Assembly: GCA_016204355.1 (NCBI GenBank)
Contig: JACQKT010000018.1
Location: forward strand, 4,987-68,986
Direction of reading: 5' to 3'
DNA length: 64,000 bases
Origin: Candidatus Liptonbacteria bacterium
GTDB taxonomy: Bacteria; Patescibacteriota; Minisyncoccia; UBA6257; 2-01-FULL-56-20
The translations under genes and the position numbers were made by a program. Shown here piece by piece: positions 11,557-63,210 of the stretch (position 1 is the first letter of the stretch; each line of letters begins with the position of its first letter). Below the pieces are notes generated by a model. That model had not been told where the DNA came from. It saw nothing but the letters and a program-made list of their open reading frames with translations, and ran no database searches.

Positions 11557-12912
11557 ATGAAAATCGCCATTTTGGGCTTCGCAAGAGAAGGACGCTCGGT
11601 CCTTAAATTCCTTCAAAAGGACCGAGAATTCAAAAAATCTGAGATTTGGATTTTGGACAAAAATCCCAATTCGGTATCGGGTATTAACCGGGTGCCCGGG
11701 ATACGAACCGGCAAGAATTATCTAAAAAATCTGCATGTCTTCGATGTTGTTTTTCGCTCGCCCGGAATACCTTATTTGTCGCCGGAAATACAAAAGGCGG
11801 AAAGAAAAGGCACAGAAATATTGAGCGCAACCAAGATATTTTTCGAAAGATGCCCCGGAACTATTATCGGCATCACAGGGACGAAAGGTAAAGGAACCAC
11901 GTCTACGATTCTCTACAAGATGCTTAAAGCCCATTCGACAAGCTCAGGGCAAGCCGGAGGCAGGAAGGTTTTTCTGGCGGGAAATATAGGCAGGCCGGCG
12001 CTGGATATGCTTTCGAAAATCGACAAAAAATCTCTTGTTGTTTTCGAACTCTCGAGCTTCCAGCTTCAAGACATGAAAATGTCCCCGGAGATAGCCGTTG
12101 TTCTGGATATTTTCCCCGACCATCTGGACGCACACAAAAATGTCAGAGAATATTACGCGGCTAAAGCTAATATCACGAAATATCAGAGCAAAAAGGACAG
12201 GGTTTTTTCCTTCAAAAACAACAGCTTGAGCGGGAAAATGGCTGCAAACGGTAAAGGCCTCAAGATTGTCGTGGACGAAAAGAAATTCGGACTTTTTTCT
12301 TCCGGCGACCTGAAAATCGATGGGCCGCATAATTTCAAAAACGCCGTTATGGCTGCGACTGTCGCGAAATCGCTGGGCGTGTCGAATAAAGCCATTGTTA
12401 AAACGATAAGGAATTTCCGCGGGATGGAGCACAGATTGGAATTTGTAAGGAAAATTAAATTGCAAATTCATTCGCATACAATTTCGCGTAATTTGCATTA
12501 TGTTTACTTTTACAACGATTCCGCTTCGACAAATCCGCAGACCGCCGCGGCGGCCATGGAATCTTTTCCGAAAAAAGAAAAAATACTTGTAGCGGGAGGA
12601 CAGGATAAAAATCTGAGTTATGCTCCTCTTAAAAAAGCGATTGAGAAATCCGGAACGAAATTTTTGGTTCTCTTCGGAGAAAACAAAAGCAAAATCGGAA
12701 AATCGGTAAGAGGGTCCGGAGCCGAGATAGCGTTTACGAAAAATCTCGCCGAGGCGATTAAAGAATCGCGTAAACGCGCGGAACACCTGGCGGCCCGAAA
12801 AGATTCTGATGTAGCCGTTCTTTTTTCTCCCGCTTCGACAAGTTTCGATATGTTCGAAAATTACGAGGATCGCGGCGATAAGTTCAAAAAAATCGTAAAA
12901 CAGTTAAAATAA
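11557..12912 (+). CDS. murD: UDP-N-acetylmuramoylalanine--D-glutamate ligase
   Basis: Mur ligase P-loop GITGTKGKGTTS, HRLEFV...NDSASTN block typical of MurD and a MurD N-terminal Rossmann start. Carries a 15-aa in-frame insert (see findings). Confidence 0.8.
   Translation: MKIAILGFAREGRSVLKFLQKDREFKKSEIWILDKNPNSVSGINRVPGIRTGKNYLKNLHVFDVVFRSPGIPYLSPEIQKAERKGTEILSATKIFFERCPGTIIGITGTKGKGTTSTILYKMLKAHSTSSGQAGGRKVFLAGNIGRPALDMLSKIDKKSLVVFELSSFQLQDMKMSPEIAVVLDIFPDHLDAHKNVREYYAAKANITKYQSKKDRVFSFKNNSLSGKMAANGKGLKIVVDEKKFGLFSSGDLKIDGPHNFKNAVMAATVAKSLGVSNKAIVKTIRNFRGMEHRLEFVRKIKLQIHSHTISRNLHYVYFYNDSASTNPQTAAAAMESFPKKEKILVAGGQDKNLSYAPLKKAIEKSGTKFLVLFGENKSKIGKSVRGSGAEIAFTKNLAEAIKESRKRAEHLAARKDSDVAVLFSPASTSFDMFENYEDRGDKFKKIVKQLK
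12457..12502. repeat. 45-nt palindromic GCGAAT-family element lying in-frame inside murD
   Basis: Sequence aaattgcaaattcattcgcatacaatttcgcgtaatttgcattat shares ATTCGCA / TTCGCG / ATTTGCAT words with the intergenic element family. It encodes KLQIHSHTISRNLHY, which is absent from the canonical MurD block. Confidence 0.5.
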
Positions 12913-12916
12913 ACGA

Positions 12917-13210
12917 ATGCTTTCAGAGATAGATAAAAAAACCATAGAATATCTCGCCGAACTCTCCAGGATAAAGCTCGGCGCCGACGAAGAAAATAAA
13001 ATACTTAAGGACTTGAAAAAAATCCTCGTTTATTTCGAGGAGCTGAAATCACTCGATACTTCCGGCATAGAAACCATGAATGGAGGTACCGAGGCTAAAA
13101 ACGAATTCAGGAACGACGATGACAGGACGGATACCGACAAAGGAAATGGCGTTGAGGCGTTCCCCGAAAAAGAAAACGGCTTTTTAAAAGTGCCTCCGGT
13201 GTTCGAATGA
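12917..13210 (+). CDS. gatC: Asp/Glu-tRNA amidotransferase subunit C
   Basis: 97-aa protein with GatC pattern (EYLAELSRIKLGADEE...ILVYFEELKSLDTSGIE), directly upstream of gatA. Confidence 0.8.
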   Translation: MLSEIDKKTIEYLAELSRIKLGADEENKILKDLKKILVYFEELKSLDTSGIETMNGGTEAKNEFRNDDDRTDTDKGNGVEAFPEKENGFLKVPPVFE

Positions 13211-13269
13211 ACATAATGCGAACGATGCGAATTTGTATGCGAATACCACGAATGTATTAGGAAAATCGA
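13211..13269. repeat. half (non-palindromic) GCGAAT-motif element in the gatC-gatA spacer
   Basis: Direct iterations AATGCGAAC, GATGCGAAT, TATGCGAATA, CACGAATG, ATCGAATG fill the gap from the gatC stop to the gatA ATG. Confidence 0.5.
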
Positions 13270-14751: not shown

Positions 14752-14755
14752 AGGA

Positions 14756-15751: not shown

Positions 15752-15838
15752 CGGACTTATTATAGCAAATCCATTTAAAAAGATATGTGGAAAATAATGT
15801 CTCTTTGCCGGCGAAATGATGTCAGGTAGAATGAACGG

Positions 15839-16339
15839 ATGATTTTAGCGACGCATGCCGTGGTTGGAGCCGCCTCAGCTATCGTTTTCCGCGACAATCC
15901 CGCGATTGCATTGACTGTCGCTTTTTTGAGTCATTTCGTTCTCGATGCCATCCCTCATTGGCACTACAGGCTCCTTTCGAGAATAATCGATGCCTCTTTG
16001 CAATTCGGAGAAAAGCTCAATTTTAACGGGGAGTTTTTAAAAGACACCTTCCGCACCGGTATTGATTTCGGGGTCGGATTGGTTATTTCGCTTGCGATTT
16101 CGCAATCTTTTTATCCAGATTACTTCTGGCTGACGGCTTTCGGCGCTTTCGCCGGCGCTTTGCCTGACTTACTGCAAGTGATTTATGAAAGATTTCCGAA
16201 TACACCGCTCTATCATTTCAAAAAATTCCACGAAAACGTTCATGCAAAAACTTCTCTTGACGAACAACCGCTGGTCGGCATTTCCCAGCAGATAATCGTA
16301 TCAATAGCGGCGGCTTTTGTGATGATTTATTTTAGCTGA
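15839..16339 (+). CDS. membrane-bound metal-dependent hydrolase-like protein (YdjM/DUF457-like)
   Basis: Polytopic 166-aa protein with the HFVLDAIPHWH His/Asp motif reminiscent of DUF457. Confidence 0.45.
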   Translation: MILATHAVVGAASAIVFRDNPAIALTVAFLSHFVLDAIPHWHYRLLSRIIDASLQFGEKLNFNGEFLKDTFRTGIDFGVGLVISLAISQSFYPDYFWLTAFGAFAGALPDLLQVIYERFPNTPLYHFKKFHENVHAKTSLDEQPLVGISQQIIVSIAAAFVMIYFS

Positions 16340-16443
16340 TCTGCGTATCGTTCAAATCCAGCCACCCGAAAAGTTAGTCCTTCGACTTCGCTCAGGACAG
16401 CGAAATTCTAAAGCCCGCAAAAGTGGGCTAAGAATTTCAGCTG

Positions 16444-16517
16444 CGCGGGCGGCCGGATTTGAACCGGTGACCTTCCCCGTGACAGGGGGACGTTCTGCCA
16501 GGCTGAACTACGCCCGC
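16444..16517 (-). tRNA. tRNA-Asp (anticodon GUC)
   Basis: Reverse complement folds as GCGGGCG-UA-GUUC-AGCCUGGCA-GAAC-G-UCCCC-CUGUCAC-GGGGA-AGGUC-ACCGG-UUCAAAU-CCGGC-CGCCCGC-G (one A.C at 49-65). Confidence 0.7.
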
Positions 16518-20142: not shown

Positions 20143-20196
20143 GGTCGAAATTATTATAATCCCGAAGAGCTTTTAAAAAAATGCCGGATAAAAATG

Positions 20197-22316: not shown

Positions 22317-23543
22317 TTAGTGAATTGTCCCGACAAGCTGGTAAAGCGGCAGAAGAACCGAAGCAAAAAGTATCCCTATCACGATTCCTATCCCTATAAT
22401 CAAGACCGGCTGTATCAACTCGACTATGTTACCTATGGCCGCATCTGCTTCCCGGCCGTAGAATGCCGATATGCGCGAAAAAGTTGACTCCAGCTGCCCC
22501 GCTTCTTCTCCCACGGCGATCATTTGCGTAACAAGCGACGGAAAATATTGTGGATATTTTGAAGCGGATGCCGAAATCGTTTGCCCCTGGCGCACGTCTT
22601 CGGCAATTTGATGCATTATTTCGCGATAAACGACATTGTCGGCCGTTTCGCCGATTATCTCCATAGATTGGACGACTGGCACGCCTCCTTTCAAAAGCAT
22701 GGATGCCGAATTCGATATACGGGTGATCGTCAACGGGAGATAAATTTTATTCAATATCGGGAGAGAAATCTTGAATTCGTCCTTAACGGCTTTTCCTTCC
22801 GGGGTCCGAAAATAATCGACGATCATCAGGGCGATTCCGAAAAGCGCAAAAAGGATAACTGGCCACCACTGATTGAGAAACGCGCTTACCGCCACTATTA
22901 TCAATGTGAACAGAGGAAGTTCAACGCCCGCTTCCGAGAATATCGGCCCGACTTGTGGAACGACGAATGTCGCCAATATGAACGAAACGACGAAAAATAG
23001 AATTATCAAAATGGCCGGATAAATAAGCGCGGACTGCGCTTTCTGCTCGAGAGAATATTCGCGTTCAAGATAGTCGGCCAAAAATCCCATGACATTTTCA
23101 AGATTGCCCGTTAATTCGGCTGACCTGACCATGCTCGTAAAAAATCCAGAAAAGATTTCCGGCTGCCTTTCCAGCGCCTGCGAAAACGACAAGCCGGCAT
23201 CGATGTTTTCGGAAATTTGGAGCACTGCCTCTTTTAGCATCGGGCTGGTCGTCTGTTTATGCAAAGTTTTCAGGCTTATATTAAGAGGAACGCGCGCTTC
23301 AAGAAGTATGGCGAGTTGGCGAGTGAATATGACAAAATCCTTTTTGTGCAGGCGATTAGAAAAATAATCGCTCAATTTTTCATACCATCTGGATTTCTCC
23401 GCTTCCTCCAGGCTGAGAATGAAAAGGTTGTGTTCCGCCAAAATGCTAGTCGCCGCTTCTTTGCTTGCGGCTTCAACCACTCCGATTTGGTTTTCTCCTT
23501 CTTTAGTTTTAGCCTGATATTTGAATTTCATATGCTTACGCAC
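22317..23543 (-). CDS. pilC: type IV pilus platform protein (GspF/PilC family)
   Basis: Two T2SS-F repeats with three TM segments, 408 aa. GTG start. Confidence 0.85.
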   Translation of the reverse strand: MRKHMKFKYQAKTKEGENQIGVVEAASKEAATSILAEHNLFILSLEEAEKSRWYEKLSDYFSNRLHKKDFVIFTRQLAILLEARVPLNISLKTLHKQTTSPMLKEAVLQISENIDAGLSFSQALERQPEIFSGFFTSMVRSAELTGNLENVMGFLADYLEREYSLEQKAQSALIYPAILIILFFVVSFILATFVVPQVGPIFSEAGVELPLFTLIIVAVSAFLNQWWPVILFALFGIALMIVDYFRTPEGKAVKDEFKISLPILNKIYLPLTITRISNSASMLLKGGVPVVQSMEIIGETADNVVYREIMHQIAEDVRQGQTISASASKYPQYFPSLVTQMIAVGEEAGQLESTFSRISAFYGREADAAIGNIVELIQPVLIIGIGIVIGILFASVLLPLYQLVGTIH

Positions 23544-23646
23544 ATAATGCGAATGACACTAATTTTGTGCGAATGTTGCAAATACCGCGAATGCATTTCT
23601 TGGTTTTTTGCATTATTCGCATACATTCGTAGGTTGGCATTATGTC
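23537..23646. repeat. palindromic GCGAAT-family element spanning the pilT-stop to pilC-start gap
   Basis: AATGCGAATG, GTGCGAATG, CCGCGAATG direct iterations followed by inverted CATTATTCGCAT, CATTCGTAG, GCATTATG. Ends resemble CATAATGC inverted. Confidence 0.55.
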
Positions 23647-24723
23647 TCACTGCATCCTCTCCAAAAGAATTCTCAATTCCGCAGGATTCGGCGAATAAAG
23701 CTCGGCATTTTCGAGCGATACTTCTTTGTTTTTTACTAACCCGGCCAGCGAGCGGTTCAACGTAACCATTCCTTCCTGCAGGCTTGTCTCTATGACCAAA
23801 TCTATCTGATATATCTTTTTTTCGCGTATAAGATTCCGTATTGCCGGATTGACGATCATTACTTCAAGAACAGGAACGCGTCCGCCGGAAAGACGCGGAA
23901 GAAGTCTTTCGGAAACTATCGCAACGAGAGTCGAAGCGAGCTGGGAGATCACCTGCCCCTGCTGTTCCGAAGCGAAAGAATCTATTATTCTGTCGACGGT
24001 TTGAGAAGCGGAATTCGTGTGGAGCGTCGAGAAAACAAGATGCCCGGTTTCTGCCGCCGTCATTGCGGTGGAGATGGAAACGGAATCGCGCATTTCCCCT
24101 ATCATGATAACGTCGGGGTCCTGGCGGAGCACCGTTCTGAGACCGGCGTGGAAACTTGGTGTATCGCTGCCGACTTCTCTTTGTGAAACTATGCACCTGT
24201 CCTGAACGAAAATATATTCTATGGGGTCTTCAATTGTTACGATGTGATCGGTTCTGTCGTGGTTTATTTCATCGAGCATCGCCGCGAGCGTCGTCGATTT
24301 TCCGTGTCCCGCTGGCCCGACAACAAGAATGAATCCCTGGGATAATTTGGTGAAGTCATGCAATATCGGCAAAAGTCCAAGTTCTTCTATTGTTCTTATC
24401 CTTGAAGGTATGAGACGGAGCGACGCAGCCATATATCCGCGTTGGAAGTAAACGTTGACCCTGAACCTCGCTTTATCTTCGAAATTGTAAGCGAAATCGA
24501 GTTGGCGCTTTTCCAAAAAAGTTTTTTTCTGTTCCGGAGTAAGCAGGGTCGAAATAAGCTGGTCGATTGTTTCCGGCGTCAGCTGCGGTTCTTTTTGTAT
24601 CGGAATCAAAACTCCGTCGACTCTCAGCGTGGGCCTGCGCCCGACCGACATATGCAAATCCGAAGCGTTCTGCCGCGCCGCGGTCAGCATGATTTCTTTC
24701 ATTTGTTCCTGCGGAGTTGCCAT
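23647..24723 (-). CDS. pilT: twitching motility (retraction) ATPase
   Basis: 358 aa with Walker A GPAGHGKSTTLAAM and PilT-type Asp/His boxes. Confidence 0.85.
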   Translation of the reverse strand: MATPQEQMKEIMLTAARQNASDLHMSVGRRPTLRVDGVLIPIQKEPQLTPETIDQLISTLLTPEQKKTFLEKRQLDFAYNFEDKARFRVNVYFQRGYMAASLRLIPSRIRTIEELGLLPILHDFTKLSQGFILVVGPAGHGKSTTLAAMLDEINHDRTDHIVTIEDPIEYIFVQDRCIVSQREVGSDTPSFHAGLRTVLRQDPDVIMIGEMRDSVSISTAMTAAETGHLVFSTLHTNSASQTVDRIIDSFASEQQGQVISQLASTLVAIVSERLLPRLSGGRVPVLEVMIVNPAIRNLIREKKIYQIDLVIETSLQEGMVTLNRSLAGLVKNKEVSLENAELYSPNPAELRILLERMQ

Positions 24724-31114: not shown

Positions 31115-31207
31115 GAATTAAACTCAAGTCCTTCTTTATTTAAGAAGTGCGCGGTTTTTATAAGTACTTTGACTAATTTCATTTCCGTTTTAGTATAATA
31201 TCCTAAT

Positions 31208-33042: not shown

Positions 33043-33052
33043 ATCAAGAAAC

Positions 33053-45282: not shown

Positions 45283-45384
45283 AAGTACGAATAATTACGA
45301 AAATACGAATTTTGCGGCGCTAATAACTTTGTTGAAGTTATTCGTATTTTCGTACTTGATTAGCAATTTCGTAAATGTACGGTA
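45283..45384. repeat. palindromic TACGAAT-family element upstream of clpB
   Basis: TACGAAAATACGAAT (45296-45310) is the reverse complement of ATTCGTATTTTCGTA (45340-45354). Inner hairpin AATAACTT-tgttg-AAGTTATT. Shares ATTCGTATTTTCGTAC and TTCGTAAATG with the 47612 element. Confidence 0.55.
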
Positions 45385-45648
45385 TCACGAATTCGGGCGT
45401 TTTTCAAGGGTCGCATTCACGGTCATTTCATTTTCGTCGCGCAATATTTTAATTGTAATCGTTTCTCCCACTCTCAGGTCCGAGATAGCGCTCCCGAGCG
45501 GATTGTAGGGTTGAGCGTTGCTTTGGCTTTGCGCTTCCTGCGAAGAAGTGGCGCTTTTTCCGGTAAAAGGAGAAATGAAATCATTCCAGAGGTCGTTAAA
45601 AAAGTTTGCGTTGGCAAGCGGCGCCGAGAGAACGGGCGCCATGATCAT
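45385..45648 (-). CDS. PDZ-domain fragment (possible remnant of an HtrA-type protease gene)
   Basis: 87-aa ORF whose C-terminal 35 aa (ISDLRVGETITIKILRDENEMTVNATLEKRP) look like the end of a PDZ domain. No protease domain upstream. Confidence 0.3.
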   Translation of the reverse strand: MIMAPVLSAPLANANFFNDLWNDFISPFTGKSATSSQEAQSQSNAQPYNPLGSAISDLRVGETITIKILRDENEMTVNATLEKRPNS

Positions 45649-45699: not shown

Positions 45700-47055
45700 T
45701 TATTTTCCATGCGAGGGTATGAGTAATTTTTTAGTTATTTTTAAAGCGCTGTCAATATCCTTTTTGGAAGTCGGCCTGCCAAAAGTGAAACGAATGCTCC
45801 GGCGGGCGCGTTTCTCGGAAAAACCCATCTCTTTTATCACATAAGAGGGTCCCGAAGACCGCGCGGAGCACGCAGATCCTGCCGAAGCCGCGAGACCTGC
45901 CAAATCGAAACTCGTCAACAAATCCTGCGCTTCATAATCCGGAAAATGAACATTCAAAAAATTCGGGAGGGTTTTCCTCGCGCTGCCGTTGCGCTCCGCT
46001 CTCGGATATATTTTTTTCAATTCCTTCCAAAAATAATCTCGCAGTGCCGATGTTCTTTTGCTTTCCGAAACGCGCAGACGGGGAACAATCTCCGCGGCTT
46101 TTGCGAATCCGACGATCAAAGGAATGTTTTCGGTGCCGGACCGGATCCCGAATTCCTGGCCGCCCCCCATTATAATTGGGTTTAAGATGTAGGAATTATG
46201 ATTCATGAGCCCCCTGTTTCTTAATAAATCTTTTTTCTTAAATCCTAATTCGCGCGCATAAAGGGCTCCGGCGCCTTTCGGACCGTAAATTTTGTGAGCG
46301 GATAAAGTCATAAGATCGACTCCCAGCCTGCCTACATCGCAATCGAAAAATTGGAACGCTTGAACGGCATCTGTATGAAAGAGGGGGTAGAAGCTGGAAT
46401 TTGTTTCGGCTTTCCGCTTTTTGAAATCATTAATTATTTTTTTTATTTCGAAAAGCGGCTGTATCGTGCCGATTTCGTTGTTGGCGTACATGACCGACAC
46501 CAAAACTGTCCGCTCATTCAGCGATTCTTCGAGTTTTTTCAAATCGACCAGTCCCTCCTCCGATACCGGAATGAAAGTTACTTCAACTCCGTCTTTTTCC
46601 AGCTCGTGCGCAGTTTCAAGAACCGATTCATGCTCGATAGACGAAACGATGACGCGAAGCGGAAATCGCTTTTTGAAGAAGCTCTCGGAGGTGCGCCGGG
46701 TTTGGTCTCCAAAGGAGCCGGCGCGCCGAGAGCGCAGGTGGGTGCTAGTCGTCGGAGTGAGCAAACCGCCGGTTCCCAAAAAAGCGATTTCCGCCGCTTT
46801 CACCGCTCCCCGCAACGCAAGGTTGTTAGCTTCCGTAGCCGAGCCGGTAAAAACGACTTCACGGAATCCCGCGCCTATCGTTTTTGAAATAGCTTCGCGC
46901 GATTCGTCGAGTGCCCTTATCGCTTCCTGACCGAAATAATGCAGCGAGCCGGCGTTGCCGTATTTTTCGGCAAAGTACGGACGCATCGCTTTTTCCGCTT
47001 CCGGCGCAACCGGAGTAGAAGCGGCGTAATCAAAATAGAGTCTGGCTCTTGGCAT
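45700..47055 (-). CDS. cysteine desulfurase (class V aminotransferase; IscS/NifS-like)
   Basis: SAHKIYGPKGAGALY PLP-lysine motif, SSIEHESVLET and ATEANNLAL blocks. Carries an in-frame insert of about 44 aa between the latter two (see findings). Confidence 0.8.
   Translation of the reverse strand: MPRARLYFDYAASTPVAPEAEKAMRPYFAEKYGNAGSLHYFGQEAIRALDESREAISKTIGAGFREVVFTGSATEANNLALRGAVKAAEIAFLGTGGLLTPTTSTHLRSRRAGSFGDQTRRTSESFFKKRFPLRVIVSSIEHESVLETAHELEKDGVEVTFIPVSEEGLVDLKKLEESLNERTVLVSVMYANNEIGTIQPLFEIKKIINDFKKRKAETNSSFYPLFHTDAVQAFQFFDCDVGRLGVDLMTLSAHKIYGPKGAGALYARELGFKKKDLLRNRGLMNHNSYILNPIIMGGGQEFGIRSGTENIPLIVGFAKAAEIVPRLRVSESKRTSALRDYFWKELKKIYPRAERNGSARKTLPNFLNVHFPDYEAQDLLTSFDLAGLAASAGSACSARSSGPSYVIKEMGFSEKRARRSIRFTFGRPTSKKDIDSALKITKKLLIPSHGK
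46659..46793. repeat. GC-rich palindromic insertion inside the cysteine desulfurase ORF
   Basis: Terminal inverted repeats GCGGAAATCGCTTTTTG / CAAAAAAGCGATTTCCGC enclose about 100 nt holding nested palindromes (GCTCTCGG..CCGAGAGC, GCGCCGG..CCGGCGC, GGTTTG..CAAACC). Confidence 0.5.
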
Positions 47056-47605
47056 CGCTAAAAGTCAAAATTACCGATTCTCCGTTCATGGAGTCGGGAA
47101 TGATGAGCTCGTTTTTAATTCTATACAAATCGTATAAATCTTTCGTGAGTTTTACGTCCTGAAGACAATACTTCTTAAGTTCTTCTATCTCGCCGTTTTT
47201 ATAAAGAGTTATCGCTTCGTATCCTTTCCTTTCTTTGCCGATGCCGAGATTCGCGCGCGAAAGTTTGTCGAGGCTTATTTTTTTGCCGAATTTTATCTCT
47301 ATTTCCTCAAGAAGATCTATTCTTTCCTTTTTCCGAAGTTCCGGCTTTATTCCAGGCAATCTGCCGAAATGCGAGTCCAGGACCGGTATGTCATATGTAT
47401 TGATGCTGAAGCCGACGAGGCGCAATGCCGAATCGAAAAGTTTTGCCGCTTCCTCCAGTTCGTTTTCACCGAAAGAAAAATATTTGTTTTTCGAATAGGA
47501 ATAAGCACAGACCATCGAAATCTCGAGCGCATTGAAATTGTTCCAGCCAACCCCGGGGTCGGTGAAAAAATTTTTTGTTTCTATATCGAAAACAAGGGTG
47601 TCCAT
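47030..47605 (-). CDS. RNase H-like 3'-5' exonuclease (YprB/PolB-exo-like)
   Basis: N-terminal VFDIETKN Exo I motif with downstream conserved acidic residues. Confidence 0.5.
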   Translation of the reverse strand: MDTLVFDIETKNFFTDPGVGWNNFNALEISMVCAYSYSKNKYFSFGENELEEAAKLFDSALRLVGFSINTYDIPVLDSHFGRLPGIKPELRKKERIDLLEEIEIKFGKKISLDKLSRANLGIGKERKGYEAITLYKNGEIEELKKYCLQDVKLTKDLYDLYRIKNELIIPDSMNGESVILTFSDAKSQTLF

Positions 47606-47681
47606 GGAAATTTTACGAAATTACTAATTTTTACGAATATACGAATTCGTATTTTCGTACTCATTCGTAACTTCGTAAATG
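47606..47681. repeat. palindromic TACGAAT-family element
   Basis: TTACGAATATACGAATTCGTATTTTCGTAC near-perfect palindrome centred on CGAATTCG, followed by TTCGTAACTTCGTAAATG. Confidence 0.55.
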
Positions 47682-48179
47682 CTAAACGTGCCTGTCGGCT
47701 ACGTTGGAAGCGGCATAACTGACCGGTTTTGTTACCGGTTCGAAATCGTGAGCGCGTATCATGCCGACGACTTCCTGTATCATCGCTTTCGTCGGTCCGT
47801 TTTCGCCGACATCAGCGTGTATCTCGAAATCCCATTCGGGCATTTCACGCCCTTCGGCGTCGGAAAGCCTTTTCAATTCGGTAAGAATTTCCTTTCCGAG
47901 GTCTATTGATATCAGAACTTCGCGTATTATCCTGTCGCGGAGCGTATGGAATTTTCCGAGCTGAGCGCGGCGCCAAAAATATCTTCCTCCGTTTCCTACC
48001 CGATGAACCACCGCGGCAGTGACGAAATCGGCCCTGCCGTCGGCAAGCCTTTCGGAATCCGTTCCTATCATTATTTTGTATTTGCGTTTCGGCTGTTCCT
48101 TCATAAAGCGGATTATCTCCTCCGCGACCCTATGAACGGTTAGCTTGATTCCGAAAGAACTGTTGAAAAATTCGGGCAT
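47682..48179 (-). CDS. DUF458/YkuK-like protein (predicted RNase H-like fold)
   Basis: 165 aa with the KIMIGTDSE motif typical of YkuK-family proteins. Confidence 0.45.
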   Translation of the reverse strand: MPEFFNSSFGIKLTVHRVAEEIIRFMKEQPKRKYKIMIGTDSERLADGRADFVTAAVVHRVGNGGRYFWRRAQLGKFHTLRDRIIREVLISIDLGKEILTELKRLSDAEGREMPEWDFEIHADVGENGPTKAMIQEVVGMIRAHDFEPVTKPVSYAASNVADRHV

Positions 48180-56331: not shown

Positions 56332-56394
56332 CTCGTTACCGAGATTATAGCAGGTAGCCGGATTTCACAAAACTGCGGTTGGCTTGCCGCAAAC

Positions 56395-58488
56395 TTATTG
56401 AAGTTGTTTCAACGACAATCCGATGTGCCCGTCGGCATCCACGCGGATGATTTTTGCGCGCACGAAATCGCCTACCTTCACCACTTCGTTGACGGTTTTT
56501 ACGAATCCGTTTTTGAGTTCGGAGACATGAATCATTCCGTCGCGCCCGCCGCCCAAATCGACGATAGCACCGAAGTCGAGAATCTTAATAACACTCCCTT
56601 CGATTATCTCTCCAACTTTGTATTCGCGGGTAAGCGCCTTTATTTCCTCGAGCGCCGCGTTCGCCTTTTCGATGTCCGTTCCCGATATGAAAACCCTTCC
56701 GTCTTCTTCGATGTCGATGCTCCCGAGTCCATATTTTTCGATAAGCCCGTTTATCACTTTCCCTCCTGAACCGATGACTGCCCCGATTTTATCCGGATTT
56801 ATCTGAAGCTGTATTATCGTCGGCGCGTAAACCGAAAGTTTTTCCCGCGGAGCCGCAAGTATTCCGGCCATAAAATCGAGTATGCCGAGCCTCGCTTCTT
56901 TCGCCTGCGCCAAAGTTTTTTCTATCATTTCGTAAGTAAGGCCTTCGACTTTCACGTCGAGCTGGACCGCCGTAACGCCGTCCTTTGTTCCTGCAACCTT
57001 GAAATCCATTCCTCCGTAAAAATCTTCGGGGCCCTGTATGTCCGTAAGGATTTTATATTTTCCGTCTCCGCTCACGACAATTCCCATCGCGATTCCCGCA
57101 GCCGGTTTTTCCAAAGGCACGCCGGCATCCATAAGCGAAAGAGTCGATGCGCAAACCGTCGCCATCGAAGAAGAGCCGTTCGAAGAAAGCGTCTCGGCGA
57201 CAACGCGAATGGTATACGGAAATTGCTCTTGCGGCGGAATCAGCGGACGGAGAGCTTTTTCGGCGAGCGCGCCGTGCCCTATCTCGCGCCGTCCCGGTCC
57301 GCGGAAAGTGCCTGTTTCGCCGACGGAATACGGCGGAAAATTATAGTGCAGCATGAACCGCCTTTTGCCGGTTATCTCCATCGTTTCGATGAATTGTTCC
57401 GCGCCCGGCGCGGCGAGTGTCGTTACCGCGAGAGTCTGCGTGTTTCCGCGGATGAAAATCCCCGAGCCGTGCGTTCTTTCGAAAAGGCCTACTTCTCCGT
57501 TGAGATTCCTGACCTGGTTCAGCTTCCTGCCATCGGGGCGTTTCTCCTGCTCCAAAATATTTTTTTGAACGATGGAATTGACAGCGTCTTCCCAGACGAA
57601 ATTCGCCGAGCGCTCATCGAATTTTTCGTTTTCTGAAAGATTCGCAATGTATTCGGCGCGCAGTTTCGACATCGCTTCGTTGTATTCGAGCTTGTTCGGC
57701 TTGTATATCGCGCCTTCAAGTTTGCCTTCCAAAAATTTTTCAGCCGCCGTTTTCAATTCCGCGTCCACTTCGAAAAGTTTCAAATCGGTTTTCTTTTTCC
57801 CGTTTTCCTTTATTATCTTTTCCTGAAAACTCACAAGCTTGTCTATTTCTTTCTGGGCGATGGCGCACGCTTCCAAAATATCTTTTTCGTCGGCCTCTTT
57901 CCCGCCGAGCTCTATCATGCTGATTTTTCCTTTCGGTCCGGCGGCGAATATTTCAAAAACGCAATCGGATTGCCTGATTTGCGAAGATGTCGGATTGATT
58001 ACGAGTTGGTCTCCTATCTTGCCGACACGAACGCCGGAAGCCGGCCCGTTCCAGAGAATATCGGATATGCCGATCGCCATCGATGCCGCCGCAAGCCCGA
58101 CGAAATCCGGGTCGTTTTCTTCGTCGAACGCGAGAACTGTCGCCACAACCTGCATTTCGCGCCTGATGCGTTCGTCAAAAAGCGGCCTGATGACGCGGTC
58201 GACGAGGCGCGCCGAAAGTATCGCGTCTTCTGACGGCCTGCCTTCGCGCCTTACGTAGCGGCTGCCTATAACTTTCCCGGCGGCATAAAATCTTTCCTCA
58301 TAATCCACCTTCAACGGCACGTAATCGAAGTTCCCCTCCGATGCGCCCATCACGGCCGTTACCAAAACAACCGTCTCGCCGTATTTGGCCAAAACCGCTC
58401 CGTTCGCCTGTTCGGCGAGCGAAGATATTTCTATAGTCAATGTTTTCCCGCCGACTTCAGTTGTATATTGTTTTCTTTGTATGGCCAT
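56395..58488 (-). CDS. pnp: polyribonucleotide nucleotidyltransferase (PNPase)
   Basis: Two RNase PH-like domains with C-terminal KH and S1 domains. 697 aa. Confidence 0.9.
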   Translation of the reverse strand: MAIQRKQYTTEVGGKTLTIEISSLAEQANGAVLAKYGETVVLVTAVMGASEGNFDYVPLKVDYEERFYAAGKVIGSRYVRREGRPSEDAILSARLVDRVIRPLFDERIRREMQVVATVLAFDEENDPDFVGLAAASMAIGISDILWNGPASGVRVGKIGDQLVINPTSSQIRQSDCVFEIFAAGPKGKISMIELGGKEADEKDILEACAIAQKEIDKLVSFQEKIIKENGKKKTDLKLFEVDAELKTAAEKFLEGKLEGAIYKPNKLEYNEAMSKLRAEYIANLSENEKFDERSANFVWEDAVNSIVQKNILEQEKRPDGRKLNQVRNLNGEVGLFERTHGSGIFIRGNTQTLAVTTLAAPGAEQFIETMEITGKRRFMLHYNFPPYSVGETGTFRGPGRREIGHGALAEKALRPLIPPQEQFPYTIRVVAETLSSNGSSSMATVCASTLSLMDAGVPLEKPAAGIAMGIVVSGDGKYKILTDIQGPEDFYGGMDFKVAGTKDGVTAVQLDVKVEGLTYEMIEKTLAQAKEARLGILDFMAGILAAPREKLSVYAPTIIQLQINPDKIGAVIGSGGKVINGLIEKYGLGSIDIEEDGRVFISGTDIEKANAALEEIKALTREYKVGEIIEGSVIKILDFGAIVDLGGGRDGMIHVSELKNGFVKTVNEVVKVGDFVRAKIIRVDADGHIGLSLKQLQ

Positions 58489-58562
58489 TTGATATGATTT
58501 ACGATTTATGATTCGAGATTTATGTTTTAAAAATTTTTGCGGAACGATTCATAAATCTTAAA

Positions 58563-59075
58563 TCACTTTCGCAAAATTATCCTCGGTATGTCTTCAATAT
58601 TGACAAATCTGTCGGCCGCTTCCTGTATTTTCCCCGAAGCGCTGCGACGAAAAGCGGCCACTTCCACCAGCCGGCCCACTCCCCATTTCAGATAATCTAC
58701 GAGGGGGCAAAAATCTCCGTCTCCGGTAACAAGTATCACCGAGTCGAGAAACGGCGCCATTCTTATTGCGTCAACCGCCATGCCGACATCCCAATCCGCT
58801 TTTTTCGTGCCGTCCGGATAAATTTGCAAATCTTTCGAGCGCAATTCGAGCCCTTCTTTCTCAAGCGCTTCGAAAAAAGCGGCTTCTCCTATCGCCGTTT
58901 CGCTTTTCACGACGTAAGCGACGGCTCTTATCAGCTGCCGTCCGGCAACAAGATTTTTTATGAGTTCCTTATAATTGACGCGCCCGTGATAAAGATTCTT
59001 GGCCGAATGGTAAAGATTCTGGACGTCGATGAAGATACCGACCCTTTGGTCGGCGTGGATGCTGTTTCCTTTCAT
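58563..59075 (-). CDS. NYN-domain (LabA-like, PIN-fold) predicted ribonuclease
   Basis: IFIDVQNLY...DWDVGMAVDAI...ILVTGDGDF NYN/LabA signature with conserved acidic residues. Confidence 0.65.
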   Translation of the reverse strand: MKGNSIHADQRVGIFIDVQNLYHSAKNLYHGRVNYKELIKNLVAGRQLIRAVAYVVKSETAIGEAAFFEALEKEGLELRSKDLQIYPDGTKKADWDVGMAVDAIRMAPFLDSVILVTGDGDFCPLVDYLKWGVGRLVEVAAFRRSASGKIQEAADRFVNIEDIPRIILRK

Positions 59076-59082: not shown

Positions 59083-59349
59083 TTATTTATTCAGTCCCAG
59101 CTTCTTGACGAGCTTCTGGTGCACCGACGGGTGCCTCTCTTTAAGATAGTTCAAAAACTTGCGGCGCTGGCTGACCATTTTCAAAAGCCCTCTTCTCGAG
59201 TGCTGGTCTTTGGGGTTCTTTTTGAGATGACCGGAAAGCTCGTCTATTCTCCGCGAAAGCACGGCCACCTGAACCTCGGCCGAGCCGGTGTCTTTTTCAT
59301 GTTTCTGCGTATCTTTTATTATTTTTGATTTTACCCGTTTGGTTAACAT
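59083..59349 (-). CDS. rpsO: 30S ribosomal protein S15
   Basis: GSAEVQVAVLSRRIDELSGHLKKNPKDQHSRRGLLKMVSQRRKFLNYL matches the S15 signature. Confidence 0.9.
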   Translation of the reverse strand: MLTKRVKSKIIKDTQKHEKDTGSAEVQVAVLSRRIDELSGHLKKNPKDQHSRRGLLKMVSQRRKFLNYLKERHPSVHQKLVKKLGLNK

Positions 59350-59576
59350 TGCCCAATTATAAAAGGTATTGACGAATAATGCAAATTTTTCCGTTTTTTC
59401 CGTTTGAAATTAAGCCGTTTTTGCGGTAAAATTAGGCACACATGCCAGGTAGTGAAAATTCGATTACTCCCAGGCATGCCGCCGTGATGCATCGCAGCGG
59501 CAGGAACTACTGTTAGCTAAATTATTGCGAAAATTTGTCGTTTAATATTAACTAAATCGAATTTCTACTACCTGGT

Positions 59577-60137
59577 ATGGTAATAAACTATTTCGGAGAC
59601 GGATGCTTCCGGCTGCAAAGCGGCGATATTTCCCTCCTGGTGGACCCTAATAACAATCGCCTCAAGGCAGACATTGTTCTAAAAACGATAATGGCCCCGA
59701 ATGCGGAGATGGCCGAAACGAACGAAATCTCGTTTCCCGGAGAATACGAATTCAAGGATATACATATACAAGGATGGCCGGTCGACAAGGAATCGACGGA
59801 AAAGTTTTTGAAAACGGTCTATCTGGTCAAATGGGAGAATCTCGGTTTTGTTTTTCTTGGACATCTTTCAAACGGCCTTGAGCCGGAAATTGCCGAAGAA
59901 TTCAGCGAACAGGATGTCATTTTTGTCCCTGTCGGAGACCATTTTCTCTCCGAAGAAAACGCCGCGAAGCTCGCGAAAAAGCTTGAGCCCGCCGTCATCA
60001 TACCGGGATTCCTGAAAAAACACGACTCGTTCGCAAAGGCGCTCGGGCAAAAACCGGAAATACAGGAAAAGTTCGTTTTCAAGAAAAAAGACCTGGAAAA
60101 CCTGAAGAATAAACCTATCATTTTGAAAAGTGCGTGA
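59577..60137 (+). CDS. MBL-fold metal-dependent hydrolase-like protein
   Basis: 186 aa with a beta-lactamase-like beta-sandwich pattern (LVDPNNNR...). Weak. Confidence 0.45.
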   Translation: MVINYFGDGCFRLQSGDISLLVDPNNNRLKADIVLKTIMAPNAEMAETNEISFPGEYEFKDIHIQGWPVDKESTEKFLKTVYLVKWENLGFVFLGHLSNGLEPEIAEEFSEQDVIFVPVGDHFLSEENAAKLAKKLEPAVIIPGFLKKHDSFAKALGQKPEIQEKFVFKKKDLENLKNKPIILKSA

Positions 60138-60239
60138 CATAATGCAAATCTACGAATGTATGCTAATGATGCAAATATTACGAATACAATGGAAATAAAA
60201 ATTTGCGGTATTCGCATAAATTAGCGTATTAGCATTACC
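60138..60239. repeat. palindromic GCGAAT/TACGAAT-family element (contains direct-repeat copy A)
   Basis: AATGCAAAT, TACGAATG, ATGCTAATG, ATGCAAAT, TACGAATA followed by inverted TATTCGCAT, TATTAGCAT. The 46-bp segment 60170-60215 is repeated exactly at 60559-60604. Confidence 0.55.
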
Positions 60240-60551: not shown

Positions 60552-60671
60552 AATATAATGCAAATATTACGAATACAATGGAAATAAAAATTTGCGGTAT
60601 TCGCGGCATTCCTGCCTACCGGCAGGCAGGCGTATAAAAATTCGCGTCGTTAGCATTATGTTTTACACACC
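60552..60671. repeat. GCGAAT/TACGAAT-family element (direct-repeat copy B) with hairpin, upstream of gyrA
   Basis: Exact 46-bp copy of 60170-60215, then CCTGCC-tacc-GGCAGG hairpin and TTCGCG / TAGCATTATG words ending 10 nt before the gyrA ATG. Confidence 0.55.
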
Positions 60672-63113
60672 ATGAGCAACATAGAAAAAAGGGAAATAAC
60701 AAAAGAGCTTCAGGAATCGTATCTCAATTACGCGATGTCCGTCATAGTCAGCCGCGCCCTTCCCGACGTACGCGACGGAATGAAACCGGTTCAGCGGCGC
60801 ATTTTGTGGGCAATGTGGGATAGCGGACTGACCCATCTCGCCAAGACCAGGAAATCGGCGAACGTGGTTGGCGAAACAATGGCTCGCTATCACCCTCACG
60901 GCGATACTTCAATCTATGACGCGCTGGCGCGAATGGTGCAGGACTGGTCACTGCGCTATCCGCTTGTCACAGGTCAGGGAAACTTCGGTTCGATAGATGG
61001 CGACTCGCCTGCGGCCATGCGTTACACGGAAGCCAAGCTTTCCAAAATAAGTGAGGAACTGCTCGTCGACATAGAAAAGGAAACTGTCGACTGGCAGGAT
61101 AACTACGACGGTACGCGCCAGGAGCCGAAAGTCCTTCCCGCGAAACTCCCGAACCTTCTTCTTAACGGAACGGTTGGGATTGCCGTGGGAATGGCGACGA
61201 ACATTCCTCCGCACAATCTCAACGAAGTCGCCGACGCCATTCTTCATTTTGCGGAAAATCCCGATGCCGACACCGACGACCTCCTTAAATTCGTAAAAGG
61301 CCCCGATTTCCCAACAGGAGGCGTTATCTTCGACAAAAAAGCCATTCGCGAAGCCTATTCTTCCGGAAAAGGCCCCATTCTGGCGCGCGCGAAAGCCGAC
61401 ATACAGGAAAGAAAAAGCAGGCAATTCGATATCATAATCACCGAAATTCCGTACCAGGTGAACAAATCGGAACTGATAAAACACATGGCGGAGCTGGTGC
61501 AGAACAAAAAGATAGAAGGGATAAGGGACATCCGCGACGAATCGGACCGTGAAGGATTGCGCATCGTCGTCGAGCTTAAATCGGACGCGAACCCGCAGAA
61601 AATTCTGAACCAGCTTTATCAATACACCGACCTTCAGAAATATTTTCATATGAATATGATTGCACTCGTCGACGGAATACAGCCTCAGCTTTTGACGCTG
61701 AAGGATGTGATTGCCGAACATCTCGAATACAGAAAAAAAATCGTACGGTGCCGGACCGAATTCGACCTCAAAAAAGCCAAGGAGCGTGCGCATATTCTTG
61801 AAGGACTGCACAAGGCTCTCGGAGTGATAGACAAAATAATCGCGGCGATAAAAAAATCTAAAGACAGGAATGACGCGCATCAGAATCTCGTAAAGCAATT
61901 CAAATTGAGCGACATCCAGGCGAACGCGATACTCGAAATGCGTCTCCAAACCCTGGCCGCGCTCGAAAGAAAAAAAATAGAAGACGAATTGAAAGAGAAG
62001 CTCGCGCTGATAAAAGATCTGGAGACGATACTCAAAAGCCCGGCGAAAATACTGGGCATAATAAAAACGGAAGTAAAAGAGTTGAAGGGAAAATACGGCG
62101 ACGACAGAAAAACTTCCGTTGTAGACGGCGGCGTGAAAACTTTCAGCGAAGAAGACCTGGTTCCAGAAGAAGAAGCGGTTATAACACTGTCGTCGGGAGG
62201 ATACATAAAACGCCTTCCCCCCGATTCGTTCAAGGCGCAGAAGCGCGGCGGGAAAGGGTTGATAGGGTCGGAAGTGAGCGAAGAAGATTTCATAACGCAA
62301 TTTTTCGCAGCAGGAACCCACGACAACATACTTTTCTTCACCGACCGCGGCAGGGTTTTCCAGACGAAGGTTTACGAAATTCCGGCAGCGAGCAGGGTTT
62401 CCAAGGGCAGGGCGATACATAACTTTCTCGAACTGCCGTCGGATGAAAACGTCAGCGCAGTTGTGAACTACAGCGAAAAGAAAGAGCCCTCCGAAGGCAA
62501 GTATCTGATAATGGTCACCAAAAGCGGCGTCATCAAAAAAACGCCGCTTGAGGATTTCAAAAATATACGCCGGACCGGCATCATCGCGATTAAACTCTCC
62601 GCCCAGGGCGGAAAAAAAGGAGACAGCCTCAAATGGGCGCGTCTATCAAGCGGCTCCGACCAGATAATCCTGGGAACCAAAAACGGCCAGGCGATAAGAT
62701 TCAAGGAAACGCAGGCTAGGCCGATGTCGAGAACGGCGAGCGGAATCAGGGCGATAAAACTGAAGAAGAACGACGAAGTCGCCGGGTTTGATATAATAAA
62801 AAGCGAAACGAAAGAAGCGAAAGTTCTCGCGGTGATGGCGAACGGCTTCGGGAAACAAACCCCTCTGAAGGAGTATAAAATCCAGAACAGGGGCGGCTCC
62901 GGGATAAAGATAGCGAATATCACCCCGAAAACCGGCTCGTTGATCGCGACCCAGCTTATCACCGAACAAACCGAAATTCTCGCACTTTCGGAAAAAGGAC
63001 AGGTTATAAGAACGGGTTTGTCTGGAGTAAGGACCACGGGGCGTTCCGCGCAGGGAGTCCGTATAATGAATCTCAAGCAGGGAGACAAGCTTGCCGGAAT
63101 AGTTTTAATATAA
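60672..63113 (+). CDS. gyrA: DNA gyrase subunit A
   Basis: YAMSVIVSRALPDVRDGMKPVQRRIL and HPHGDTSIYDALARM (GyrA signature including the quinolone-resistance-determining region (QRDR)), six C-terminal beta-pinwheel blades. 813 aa. Confidence 0.95.
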   Translation: MSNIEKREITKELQESYLNYAMSVIVSRALPDVRDGMKPVQRRILWAMWDSGLTHLAKTRKSANVVGETMARYHPHGDTSIYDALARMVQDWSLRYPLVTGQGNFGSIDGDSPAAMRYTEAKLSKISEELLVDIEKETVDWQDNYDGTRQEPKVLPAKLPNLLLNGTVGIAVGMATNIPPHNLNEVADAILHFAENPDADTDDLLKFVKGPDFPTGGVIFDKKAIREAYSSGKGPILARAKADIQERKSRQFDIIITEIPYQVNKSELIKHMAELVQNKKIEGIRDIRDESDREGLRIVVELKSDANPQKILNQLYQYTDLQKYFHMNMIALVDGIQPQLLTLKDVIAEHLEYRKKIVRCRTEFDLKKAKERAHILEGLHKALGVIDKIIAAIKKSKDRNDAHQNLVKQFKLSDIQANAILEMRLQTLAALERKKIEDELKEKLALIKDLETILKSPAKILGIIKTEVKELKGKYGDDRKTSVVDGGVKTFSEEDLVPEEEAVITLSSGGYIKRLPPDSFKAQKRGGKGLIGSEVSEEDFITQFFAAGTHDNILFFTDRGRVFQTKVYEIPAASRVSKGRAIHNFLELPSDENVSAVVNYSEKKEPSEGKYLIMVTKSGVIKKTPLEDFKNIRRTGIIAIKLSAQGGKKGDSLKWARLSSGSDQIILGTKNGQAIRFKETQARPMSRTASGIRAIKLKKNDEVAGFDIIKSETKEAKVLAVMANGFGKQTPLKEYKIQNRGGSGIKIANITPKTGSLIATQLITEQTEILALSEKGQVIRTGLSGVRTTGRSAQGVRIMNLKQGDKLAGIVLI

Positions 63114-63210
63114 TGCGAATGATGCCAATTTTATCGCGAATGACACGAAAATATTTTAGACTGTTTTTCGCATAATTCGCGTCTTATTTCGCATCATTCG
63201 CATTATATTA
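63106..63210. repeat. about 105-bp palindromic GCGAAT-family element exactly filling the gyrA-stop to next-ATG gap
   Basis: TAATATAATGCGAATGATGC (63106-63125, containing the gyrA TAA) and its perfect reverse complement GCATCATTCGCATTATATTA (63191-63210, abutting the ATG at 63211). Interior has CGCGAAT / ATTCGCG. Confidence 0.6.

Follow-up and report, generated by a model that had tools for sequence, protein, structure and literature searches.

Palindromic word-array elements in operon junctions of a Candidatus Liptonbacteria genome and other Patescibacteria, and their relation to GxxExxY gene cassettes

Introduction

What fills the junctions between the genes of a 64-kb stretch from a Candidatus Liptonbacteria metagenome-assembled genome (MAG), and does this DNA serve the host or spread on its own account? 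An earlier note on this stretch, here called the window (all positions are those of the whole 64 kb), had singled out eight loci of palindromic DNA placed from stop codon to start codon, and had read them as a lineage-specific element resembling repetitive extragenic palindromes (REPs) or MITEs (miniature inverted-repeat transposable elements), which may double as a terminator, a promoter or a protein-binding array. The reading that we favour, with a probability of roughly 0.68, is that the loci are copies of a short non-autonomous palindromic insertion element widespread in the candidate phyla radiation (CPR; Patescibacteria), and that this element is the form without an open reading frame (ORF) of a cassette that carries a GxxExxY gene.

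Results

Nine arrays of short words with defined ends in the window

Reading the eight loci confirmed that each of them carries T(G/A)CGAAT-type words, direct first and inverted after, and an inverted-repeat search added a ninth locus (58495-58565) built of TTTACGATT/TATGATTCG words. The nine copies in 64 kb are four full copies of a GCGAAT class, two solo arms, two TACGAAT-type palindromes and one variant, listed here with E values from profiles of the element or its arm and z scores of hairpin folding:

12466-12501, plus strand: solo right arm with inverted words TTGCAAAT-TCATTCGCAT-ACAATTTCGCG-TAATTTGCATTAT, in frame within murD; arm profile E 2.2e-5 for 12469-12501.
13212-13257, plus strand: solo left arm, CATAATGCGAAC-GATGCGAAT-TTGTATGCGAAT-ACCACGAAT, occupying the gatC-gatA spacer; arm profile E 2.1e-8; hairpin z +0.34.
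23544-23643, no strand assigned: full GCGAAT-class element between a pilB/pilT-like T2SSE gene (23647-24723, minus) and a pilC-like T2SSF gene (22317-23543, minus; Pfam); full-element profile E 1.2e-13; hairpin -39.6 kcal/mol, z -4.8 on the plus strand.
45283-45381, no strand assigned: TACGAAT-class palindrome between an 87-aa ORF (45385-45648, minus) and clpB (42619-45273, minus); inverted repeats I10, I12 and I17; hairpin z -3.7 and -2.5; E 0.17 with the GCGAAT-class profile.
47612-47679, no strand assigned: TACGAAT-class palindrome, TTTACGAA...TTCGTAAA, flanked by genes for an RNaseH-like protein (47682-48179, minus) and an RNase_H_2 exonuclease (47030-47605, minus); arms of 38 nt, 84% complementary; z -5.3 and -5.2.
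58495-58565, no strand assigned: variant palindrome, TGATTTACGATTTATGATTCG / CGATTCATAAATCTTAAATCA, between an NYN-domain gene and pnp; arms of 21 nt, 90% complementary; z -4.8.
60139-60237, no strand assigned: full GCGAAT-class element between a beta-lactamase-fold gene (59577-60137) and a gene for a 103-aa membrane protein; full-element profile E 2.6e-13.
60555-60659, no strand assigned: full GCGAAT-class element, 3' of a small membrane-protein gene and 5' of gyrA; full-element profile E 3.3e-6.
63110-63206, no strand assigned: full GCGAAT-class element that separates gyrA from a solute-binding-protein gene (ATG at 63211; Pfam); profile E 4.9e-13; arms of 47 nt, 81% complementary; -43.6 kcal/mol, z -7.45.

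The elements measure about 70-105 nt and contain no ORF. In the GCGAAT class (full copies at 23544, 60139, 60555 and 63110, half copies at 13212 and 12466), which has ATAATGC ends, the element starts with ATAATGC(G/A)AAT and finishes with ATT(C/T)GCATTAT, and each arm holds about four imperfect words of 8-10 nt, of the form x-Y-R-C-(G/A)-A-A-T, typically ATAATGCGAAT, CTACGAAT, ATGCGAAT and GCCGCGAAT, with gaps of 0-4 nt between them. By alignment with about 35 copies from other genomes, the four words of the arm were defined as ATAATGCGAAT, (A)CYRC(G/A)AAT, ATGCGAAT and RYYRC(G/A)AAT, followed by a short loop and by the same four inverted, a layout that amounts to two double-word units of about 20 nt per arm. 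Within every word the C and the AAT are invariant, and the repeat period is 9-10 nt. The TACGAAT class (45283-45381 and 47612-47679), with its own ends, TTTACGAA...TTCGTAAA, shows weak similarity to the GCGAAT-class profile (E 0.17-1), and the word type of its first member is also present in four of the loci compared from other genomes (L112, L119, L156 and L177). The variant at 58495-58565 is tentatively placed in the family; its words resemble those around a four-helix-bundle ORF of locus L046. The first 50 nt or so of the 60555 copy are identical to 60165-60214 within the 60139 copy, and a G+C-rich mini-hairpin, CCTGCCTACCGGCAGGCAGG, is nested in its right half at 60611-60629. Translated in frame, this mini-hairpin would give LPAGRQ-like peptides, and a MurD homolog, P0030, carries an extra LPAGRRGASGG segment; the mini-hairpin may represent a further family of small palindromic inserts.

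These words are concentrated in the elements. Within the window, [TA][GA]CGAAT and its reverse complement reach 24.9 per kb in elements, compared with 0.40 (coding DNA) and 0.37 (intergenic DNA outside the elements) per kb, so that the similar density in coding DNA which would have spoken against a dedicated repeat family was not observed. Arrays of at least four words occur five times in the window, against 0.025 expected from shuffles (one of the five, at 57596-57645, is coding DNA and is not claimed as a copy), and the two-terminus pattern ATAATGCRAA...TTNGCATTAT gave four matches at three loci, against 0.00 in 100 shuffles.

The stop-to-start placement described for these loci was found as well. 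All intergenic copies lie between co-directional housekeeping genes and fill the spacers almost exactly: in the 63110 copy the TAA stop codon of gyrA forms element bases 2-4, inside ATAATGC, and the next ATG follows 4 nt beyond the element end; the 60555 copy starts 3 nt past a stop codon and ends 12 nt short of an ATG; the 23544 copy is flush with the neighbouring stop and start codons. The description of the loci as non-coding holds for the intergenic copies and fails for 12457-12502, which is an in-frame insert in murD.

The same termini and word order recur in many CPR lineages

The family is not confined to the window or to its lineage. A scan of GTDB representative genomes with the two-terminus pattern yielded at least 118 matching stretches; among the 118 matches listed, about 45 are true elements with the same word order, and the remainder are chance matches without words. 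Among these listed matches, the MAGs that carry true elements are labelled Parcubacteria, Patescibacteria, Falkowbacteria, Buchananbacteria, Uhrbacteria, Wildermuthbacteria, Nealsonbacteria, Sungiibacteriota and Saccharibacteria; the Parcubacteria hosts include GW2011_GWA2_49_9 (at least 8 contigs) and Greene0416_39, and the Patescibacteria hosts STB_78 and others. A profile built solely from 44 copies from outside the window recovered the full window copies with E values from 1.2e-13 to 3.3e-6, the gatC-gatA arm with 2e-8 and the murD arm with 2e-5, and nothing else below 0.1. The term lineage-specific thus had to be given up, as the same termini and word order are present in many CPR lineages and foreign copies find those of the window (E 1e-13 to 2e-5); the window loci are members of a family of palindromic word arrays that spans many genomes. 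Each genome uses a word dialect of its own, and the near-identical copies present in some of them point to amplification within genomes. In 2.9 million viral contigs the two-terminus pattern gave 15 matches, all of them chance and none with word arrays. Full-text searches of the searchable literature returned no description of the element, or of word-array arms around GxxExxY genes, in agreement with the earlier failure to recognise it as a described element.

Arrays of short repeats in CPR genomes bring to mind guide-RNA-type systems of the TIGR-Tas or CRISPR-like kind, since TIGR arrays are short-repeat arrays of CPR genomes (PMC12045711), and the number of words, which differs between copies, would suit such arrays as well as local slippage or chance palindromes. 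We regard this whole group of explanations as very improbable. TIGR units consist of two alternating repeats of 8-12 nt with 9-nt spacers (9-12 nt is also given), in 5-15 tandem units of 36 nt beside a Nop-domain Tas gene (PMC12045711), whereas the words studied here lie 0-4 nt apart in inverted arrays, in dispersed copies and with no Nop-domain gene adjacent; identity with a TIGR array was rejected on this anatomy. A local or chance origin is excluded by the cross-genome profile matches together with the shuffles.

Several true elements were met on contigs labelled as other than CPR: L036, L037, L039, L045, L066, L082 and L086 (Gammaproteobacteria), L058 (Lysobacteraceae), and L016 and L024 (Bacteroidetes). 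Some of these contigs have genes for V-type ATPase subunits, for a Gram-positive-type VirB4, or for a DnaB whose score stays below all gammaproteobacterial model cut-offs, and probably the labels are wrong or the contigs are mis-binned CPR-like ones. Because gene content atypical of the labelled taxa makes the labels doubtful, we claim no spread beyond CPR. In L058, from a genome of 29% G+C, head-to-tail repeats of the element's right arm (ATTAGCGTCATTAGCATATATTCGCGTATTAGCATTAT) are present at 103-184 and 1472-1597, so that arms can also amplify as tandem units. In L153, solo left arms (8305-8345 and 8758-8797) stand at the 5' ends of two tandem paralogous genes for small TrbC/VirB2-like membrane proteins and would translate as MRIMRMQNAN... 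from the annotated start codon; it seems that gene and arm were duplicated as one.

Orthologous junctions mark the window copies as insertions

Orthologous junctions were compared in 80 gyrA loci of relatives (GyrA 56-78% identical; 644 kb in total); in these and the other foreign loci, genes were called crudely as longest ORFs. The arm profile had 3 matches in these 644 kb and 8 in the 64 kb of the window. With few exceptions among the closest relatives that were read, the junctions flanking gyrA measure 1-12 nt and contain no element, as in TAAattaATG or TAAcATG; more precisely, the junction of the 60555 copy is 1-5 nt long in relatives and that of the 63110 copy 1-10 nt. The native gyrA C-terminus, ...ATA TAA, is identical between the window and the close relatives read. 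As most orthologous gyrA junctions are empty, the presence/absence comparison with relatives shows the window copies to be insertions and not conserved regulators.

Filled gyrA junctions exist as well. CGAAT-type arrays are found in L135, L156 and L165, and other relatives carry palindromes of the same architecture made from different words: TTTCTAAT, TTTTCAAT, ACAGATA/TACGGAT, GCAAAACGC, ATCCTCC and CCCCATA. Examples among L124-L203 are:

L125, 6343-6440: palindrome of different words at the gyrA junction.
L136, about 3850-3990: palindrome of different words at the gyrA junction.
L156, about 2120-2270: palindrome of different words at the gyrA junction.
L134, L128 and L165: palindromes of different words at the gyrA junctions.

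Such palindromes appear to be a feature of CPR in general, with words that are specific to each genome.

Two window copies are half elements. The solo arm at 12466-12501 encodes most of the peptide KLQIHSHTISRNLHYV, which the in-frame segment 12457-12502 places between the conserved EHRLEFVRKI and YFYNDSASTNP of MurD; its HSH is the translation of cATTCGCAT. This insert is missing from relatives P0003-P0013 (MurD 57-62% identical), and three other homologs (P0002, P0014 and P0030) have 4 or 5 ATTCGCAT words at the same site in the same orientation as the window, with ATTCGCATTAT, or in the P0030 locus the closely similar ATTCGCATTGT, at the end of the array. In-frame murD copies also occur in L002, L004 and L005, and a full element lies in frame inside a UvrD/REP helicase of L044, at residues 76-104. 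In the gatC-gatA spacer, where only the direct half had been reported, we indeed found a solo left arm (13212-13257). The spacer of the syntenic 21-kb locus L002 is 26 nt long and free of the element, L002 having no intergenic copy at all, and the junction of L005 holds a four-helix-bundle gene cassette instead of the solo arm.

MurD shows other length variation. The window protein has a 12-aa insert at residues 126-137 (11932-11967), common to P0015 and P0019 and missing from the other aligned relatives, and further MurD homologs have variable inserts, for example INADGNADKRRYKKISENLRSNQRKS and SAKGGSASGGK, which read like translated repeats of ACGCAGAT/ATCTGCGT words.

Full copies fold into hairpins, and their arms do not covary

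A host function at the level of RNA is the first alternative: the copies could be hairpins acting as intercistronic terminators, attenuators, RNase processing sites or REP-like stabilisers of 3' ends that tune operon expression. Their structure and position fit such a role. The full copies are imperfect palindromes with arms 74-94% complementary by inverted-repeat search, and upon folding, a check that had been proposed earlier, all of them form long hairpins (-24 to -44 kcal/mol, z -2.5 to -7.5); they begin at, or a few nucleotides past, the upstream stop codon. Gaps between convergent genes are also slightly under-used (2 copies against 5.7-8 expected). The two half copies, however, do not fold (z +0.3 and -0.8), and neither they nor the in-frame coding copies can act as hairpins. 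The intrinsic terminator scan found no terminator-like copy, there being no T-tract and the stems being A+T-rich, and an Rfam scan of the window at gathering thresholds returned only tRNAs and no rRNA.

Covariation gave a further measure of whether the stem is maintained. RNAalifold on 37 copies produced a mis-registered consensus of near-zero energy, and the arm-to-arm pairing was therefore specified by hand. With this pairing, 85.5% of cells were paired, compared with 85.2 +/- 0.4% when 3' partners were shuffled among copies (115 of 500 shuffles reached 85.5%), and the covariation score of the arms was no higher than in the shuffles. It is thus the retained words that make the two arms alike, and not a maintained pairing. 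In 24 of 34 copies (p 0.002) the better fold is that of the RNA antisense to the neighbouring genes, and transition mismatches are skewed in the same direction (46 vs 71); the element therefore has a preferred orientation, and it is not the sense-strand stem that is optimised. Finally, the distribution over gap types of the 39 copies whose neighbours could be classified (29 co-directional, 8 divergent and 2 convergent, against 28, 5 and 6 expected from gap counts) does not depart significantly from background (p 0.13 and 0.055), and a bias of copies toward 5' ends or promoters was dropped for this reason. Taken with the mostly empty orthologous gyrA junctions in 80 loci (spacers of 1-12 nt where read closely), these results make a host-serving RNA hairpin unlikely.

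The second host-serving alternative places the function in DNA, as a binding array or promoter module for a conserved CPR protein, in which the words would be operators or -35-like boxes and the terminal GCATTAT a -10-like box of leaderless genes. Invariant C..AAT cores every 9-10 nt with no pairing constraint are what such an array would show, the downstream ATG often lies 4-12 nt past GCATTAT, and TATAAT precedes several start codons by 6-12 nt, the site at 59385-59356 using a ATTTGCATTAT word as its -35. On the other side, a sigma-70 scan found no outward-facing -35/-10 pair at any element end and totals not above those of shuffles, the promoter-like calls inside copies being limited to two inward-facing 9/12 matches, both in 23544-23643. 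In the consensus, TTCGCA and CATTAT stand about 19-20 nt apart, compared with 16-18 nt in a sigma-70 promoter. Copies also lie inside ORFs (murD, the UvrD helicase), the same junctions are mostly empty in relatives, and the genes that would be served are unrelated (pilC, clpB, pnp, gyrA, gatA). We consider this alternative even less likely than the RNA hairpin. The terminator or promoter role suggested by the earlier note accordingly finds no support in T-tracts, outward promoters, orthologous junctions or arm covariation, while a dedicated repeat family of the REP or MITE kind does.

The same arms enclose GxxExxY genes in longer relatives

In the compared loci no arms were found around a transposase-sized gene, and the only cassette that turned up was a GxxExxY one, in L063, where arms at 978-1016 and 1430-1467 (21 nt, 95% complementary) enclose a 144-aa ORF assigned to GxxExxY by TIGR04256 (84.5 bits, cut-off 35). 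An ORF search of the compared loci gave three GxxExxY and seven four-helix-bundle ORFs, and in nine of these ten the inverted-repeat scores of the flanks were 38-76 (26 in the tenth, L113), with a median of 20 and a 99th percentile of 39 for size-matched control ORFs. The L063 protein has more than 1,500 homologs (E <= 1e-10). Identity to it is 57-83% in the best 120, and those of the 120 with a named source come from Sungbacteria, Doudnabacteria, Staskawiczbacteria and Parcubacteria.

Six further GxxExxY loci were fetched independently, chosen as close homologs (about 60-70% identical) of one protein. With X for the GxxExxY gene, their settings are:

306-aa ORF downstream of dnaK-X-dnaJ
upstream region (miaB-like gene further up)-X-miaA
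pgk-X-DHH, in two loci
polA-X-ppa
argS-X-ileS

In 6/6 the gene is co-directional with its neighbours and is flanked on either side by arrays, inverted relative to each other, of AATGCAAAT, CTACAAAT, ATGCTAAT and TTACGAAA words (scores 39-60); the left arm sometimes provides the upstream stop codon, and the last word sometimes provides the ATG of the ORF. A crude profile made only from cassette arms had the window elements as its top matches, from E 2.9e-6 (60139, the best) to 0.1 (63111), with further matches at element loci up to E 0.73 and nothing below E 0.8 outside elements. In this sample GxxExxY is paired with this word family in 9/9 cases, each time as a co-directional insert between housekeeping genes, and the words around all seven four-helix-bundle genes are different ones. 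In longer relatives, a conserved gene for a putative nuclease thus lies between the same arms, which provides a candidate for the co-varying protein that the earlier note had recommended seeking.

The GxxExxY gene encodes about 130 aa and belongs to the PDDEXK_3 family. A structural model of the protein shows a Cas4/RecB-like nuclease fold by fold search, which alone was informative, as a PDB sequence search with the GxxExxY profile gave no match. In a survey of PD-(D/E)XK proteins, GxxExxY/PDDEXK_3 is listed as "function unknown, multiple transfers" (PMC3424549).

The four-helix-bundle genes (TIGR02436, S23p, related to Avd of diversity-generating retroelements) are also located between housekeeping genes, each with its own inverted word arrays:

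L005, 12951-13313: four-helix-bundle gene of the gatC-gatA junction; TIGR02436 (23S rRNA intervening sequence (IVS) protein family), 115.6 bits; flanked by inverted ATGCGACATG arrays.
L036, 6456-6836: four-helix-bundle gene.
L113, 5339-5743: four-helix-bundle gene.
L039, 2388-2759: four-helix-bundle gene.
L028, 246-617: four-helix-bundle gene.
L046, 1061-1438: four-helix-bundle gene.
L125, 7750-8112: four-helix-bundle gene; its cassette and the ORF-less palindromes beside gyrA share TTTCTAAT words.

On the right side of the L005 cassette there are three tandem copies of CATGTCGCATGTCGCATTACACAATTTAAC.

Since the same word arrays flank GxxExxY genes and four-helix-bundle genes share the layout, the window copies are best read as ORF-less MITE- or IVS-like derivatives.

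Other repeats and signals in the window

A second word-array palindrome is present at 40472-40553, with TTATCGGAAA three times and then TTTCCGATA twice inverted. It lies in frame in an ORF (40228-40965, minus), is translated as ...SEIDQKTVSEISDKSFSDKISDKSE... in a linker ahead of a weak DeoR-like helix-turn-helix domain, and has the architecture of the elements with different words. A 25-nt inverted repeat, 88% complementary (CATGCCAGGTAGTGAAAATTCGATT / AATCGAATTTCTACTACCTGGTATG), at 59441-59579 surrounds a stretch of 89 nt running up to the start codon of the 59577 gene; it is unrelated to the word family and has no Rfam match. At 16350-16368 and 16446-16464 a 19-nt sequence like the 3' end of tRNA-Asp (GTTCAAATCCAGCCACCCG) is found inverted, about 80 nt from the real tRNA-Asp gene, and could be the remnant of an integration at the tRNA. 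The perfect 20+20 nt palindrome AGAAACCAAGAGCCGCTTTT/AAAAGCGGCTCTTGGTTTCT at 33047-33086, between convergent genes and adjoining an HU-like gene, looks like an ordinary bidirectional terminator, which would mean that conventional terminators, different from the elements described above, exist in this organism.

A near-consensus TATAAT only 6-12 nt 5' of an ATG, with no Shine-Dalgarno sequence between, was seen at five places:

31170-31210
15815-15841
59349-59385, minus strand
20143-20175, minus strand
56332-56375, minus strand

This arrangement suggests that leaderless or very short-leader mRNAs are common in the organism. The murD start lies 6 nt after a tRNA-Met gene.

Discussion

Comparison with known systems shows an element that is MITE-like, Rickettsia palindromic element (RPE)-like and IVS-like in behaviour and yet fails at least one defining feature of MITEs, of IVSs and of REPs with their bacterial interspersed mosaic elements (BIMEs). 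Like MITEs such as the Neisseria Correia elements or those derived from IS630, it is non-autonomous, with terminal inverted repeats, dispersed copies, genome-specific subfamilies, presence/absence polymorphism and a longer relative with the same ends, and the two binding-unit repeats per arm resemble the inverted repeat/direct repeat layout of eukaryotic Tc1-type ends. Unlike MITEs, it has no target-site duplication that we could find, and its longer relative encodes a small PD-(D/E)XK nuclease and not a recognised transposase.

RPEs are likewise palindromes of about 100 nt in a reduced genome, both intergenic and in frame in essential genes, where they add a peptide segment. The phyla differ (Liptonbacteria and Rickettsia), the likeness rests on behaviour and not on sequence, and we know of no internal 8-10 nt word periodicity and no associated cargo-gene form in RPEs. 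REP/BIME sequences with their REP-associated tyrosine transposases (RAYTs) share the many extragenic palindromes after stop codons within operons, but the present elements are longer (70-105 nt vs 20-40 nt), consist of word arrays, and have neither a GTAG-type tetranucleotide nor hairpin covariation; no RAYT/Y1 transposase was found among ten window proteins scanned. Mycobacterial interspersed repetitive units (MIRUs) are intercistronic operon repeats, too, and their ends overlap the stop and start codons on either side, but they are non-palindromic, consist of direct tandem units of 46-101 bp and follow the direction of transcription.

The 23S rRNA IVSs of Coxiella burnetii, Leptospira and Salmonella are, in the same way, short selfish inserts whose inverted repeats pair into a long stem and which may or may not contain a small ORF; CPR relatives have members of their ORF family (S23p/TIGR02436) set in word arrays of the same architecture, made of different words (L005, L125 and others). 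The window copies, however, lie in mRNA operon junctions and protein genes and not in 23S rRNA helices (9, 25 or 45); they have no ORF, and the ORF tied to their word family is GxxExxY, not S23p. The Coxiella IVS is described as selfish DNA with inverted repeats at its termini and a stem that RNase III cleaves; it carries a four-helix-bundle ORF and a varying number of tandem heptamer words (PMC4990558). The origin and mobility of the four-helix-bundle IVS proteins are said to "remain unclear" (PMC4990558). The pair formed by the ORF-less element and the GxxExxY cassette resembles that of a MITE and its parent, or that of ORF-less and S23p-carrying 23S rRNA IVSs.

On the reading favoured here, the window copies would be ORF-less derivatives mobilised in trans, and the words would be recognition sites of the mobilising protein, most likely the GxxExxY nuclease. 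Such recognition would explain why word cores are conserved without covarying arm pairs. Copies may survive mainly in stop-start operon junctions of 1-12 nt because there they are co-transcribed and able to fold back, so that the stop codon upstream and the start codon downstream would come to lie close together; RNase III may cut the stem, as it does in rRNA IVSs. Half copies, unable to fold, would be tolerated when translated in frame, as in murD, or as a spacer, as between gatC and gatA.

Several observations weigh against reading the loci as copies of a mobile element related to the GxxExxY cassette. No direct repeat was found in the flanks of about 45 copies (a 2-bp TA/AT duplication, being part of the palindrome, would escape notice), and among the compared loci no filled site was found together with its exact empty counterpart at nucleotide resolution, so that transposition as such is not demonstrated. 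The 64-kb window contains no GxxExxY or four-helix-bundle gene; to our knowledge, a lone PD-(D/E)XK nuclease is not a known transposase; and the 9/9 association holds for one clade only, as the six extra loci are close homologs of one protein. The TACGAAT-class and 58495 copies are tied to the family by architecture and word core (E 0.17-1), and the murD half copy, common to genomes with only 55-62% MurD identity, could reflect long retention rather than recent mobility. The better folding of the antisense strand, in turn, is contrary to simple selection for an mRNA stem.

A wider proposal can be put forward tentatively, and we hold it to be possible but doubtful: GxxExxY genes and word-array arms would form an unrecognised class of mobile cassettes, in which the Cas4-like nuclease would read the words and spread both the gene-carrying and the ORF-less form throughout CPR, into junctions of operons as well as coding sequences, and the four-helix-bundle cassettes, and hence the 23S IVSs, would be a sister branch with the same mechanism. 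If true, it would give a function to two very large families of unknown function and an origin to the IVSs.

In conclusion, CPR genomes are very small and tightly packed, and yet about one insert per 7 kb is present here, including inside murD and between translationally coupled genes. The element ties together RPE-like palindromes that add peptides, the GxxExxY/PDDEXK_3 family and the four-helix-bundle 23S IVS proteins, and accounts for odd low-complexity inserts (HSH..., NAN...) in CPR protein predictions and for assembly breaks at repeats; it also offers a testable pair, the nuclease and its putative recognition words.

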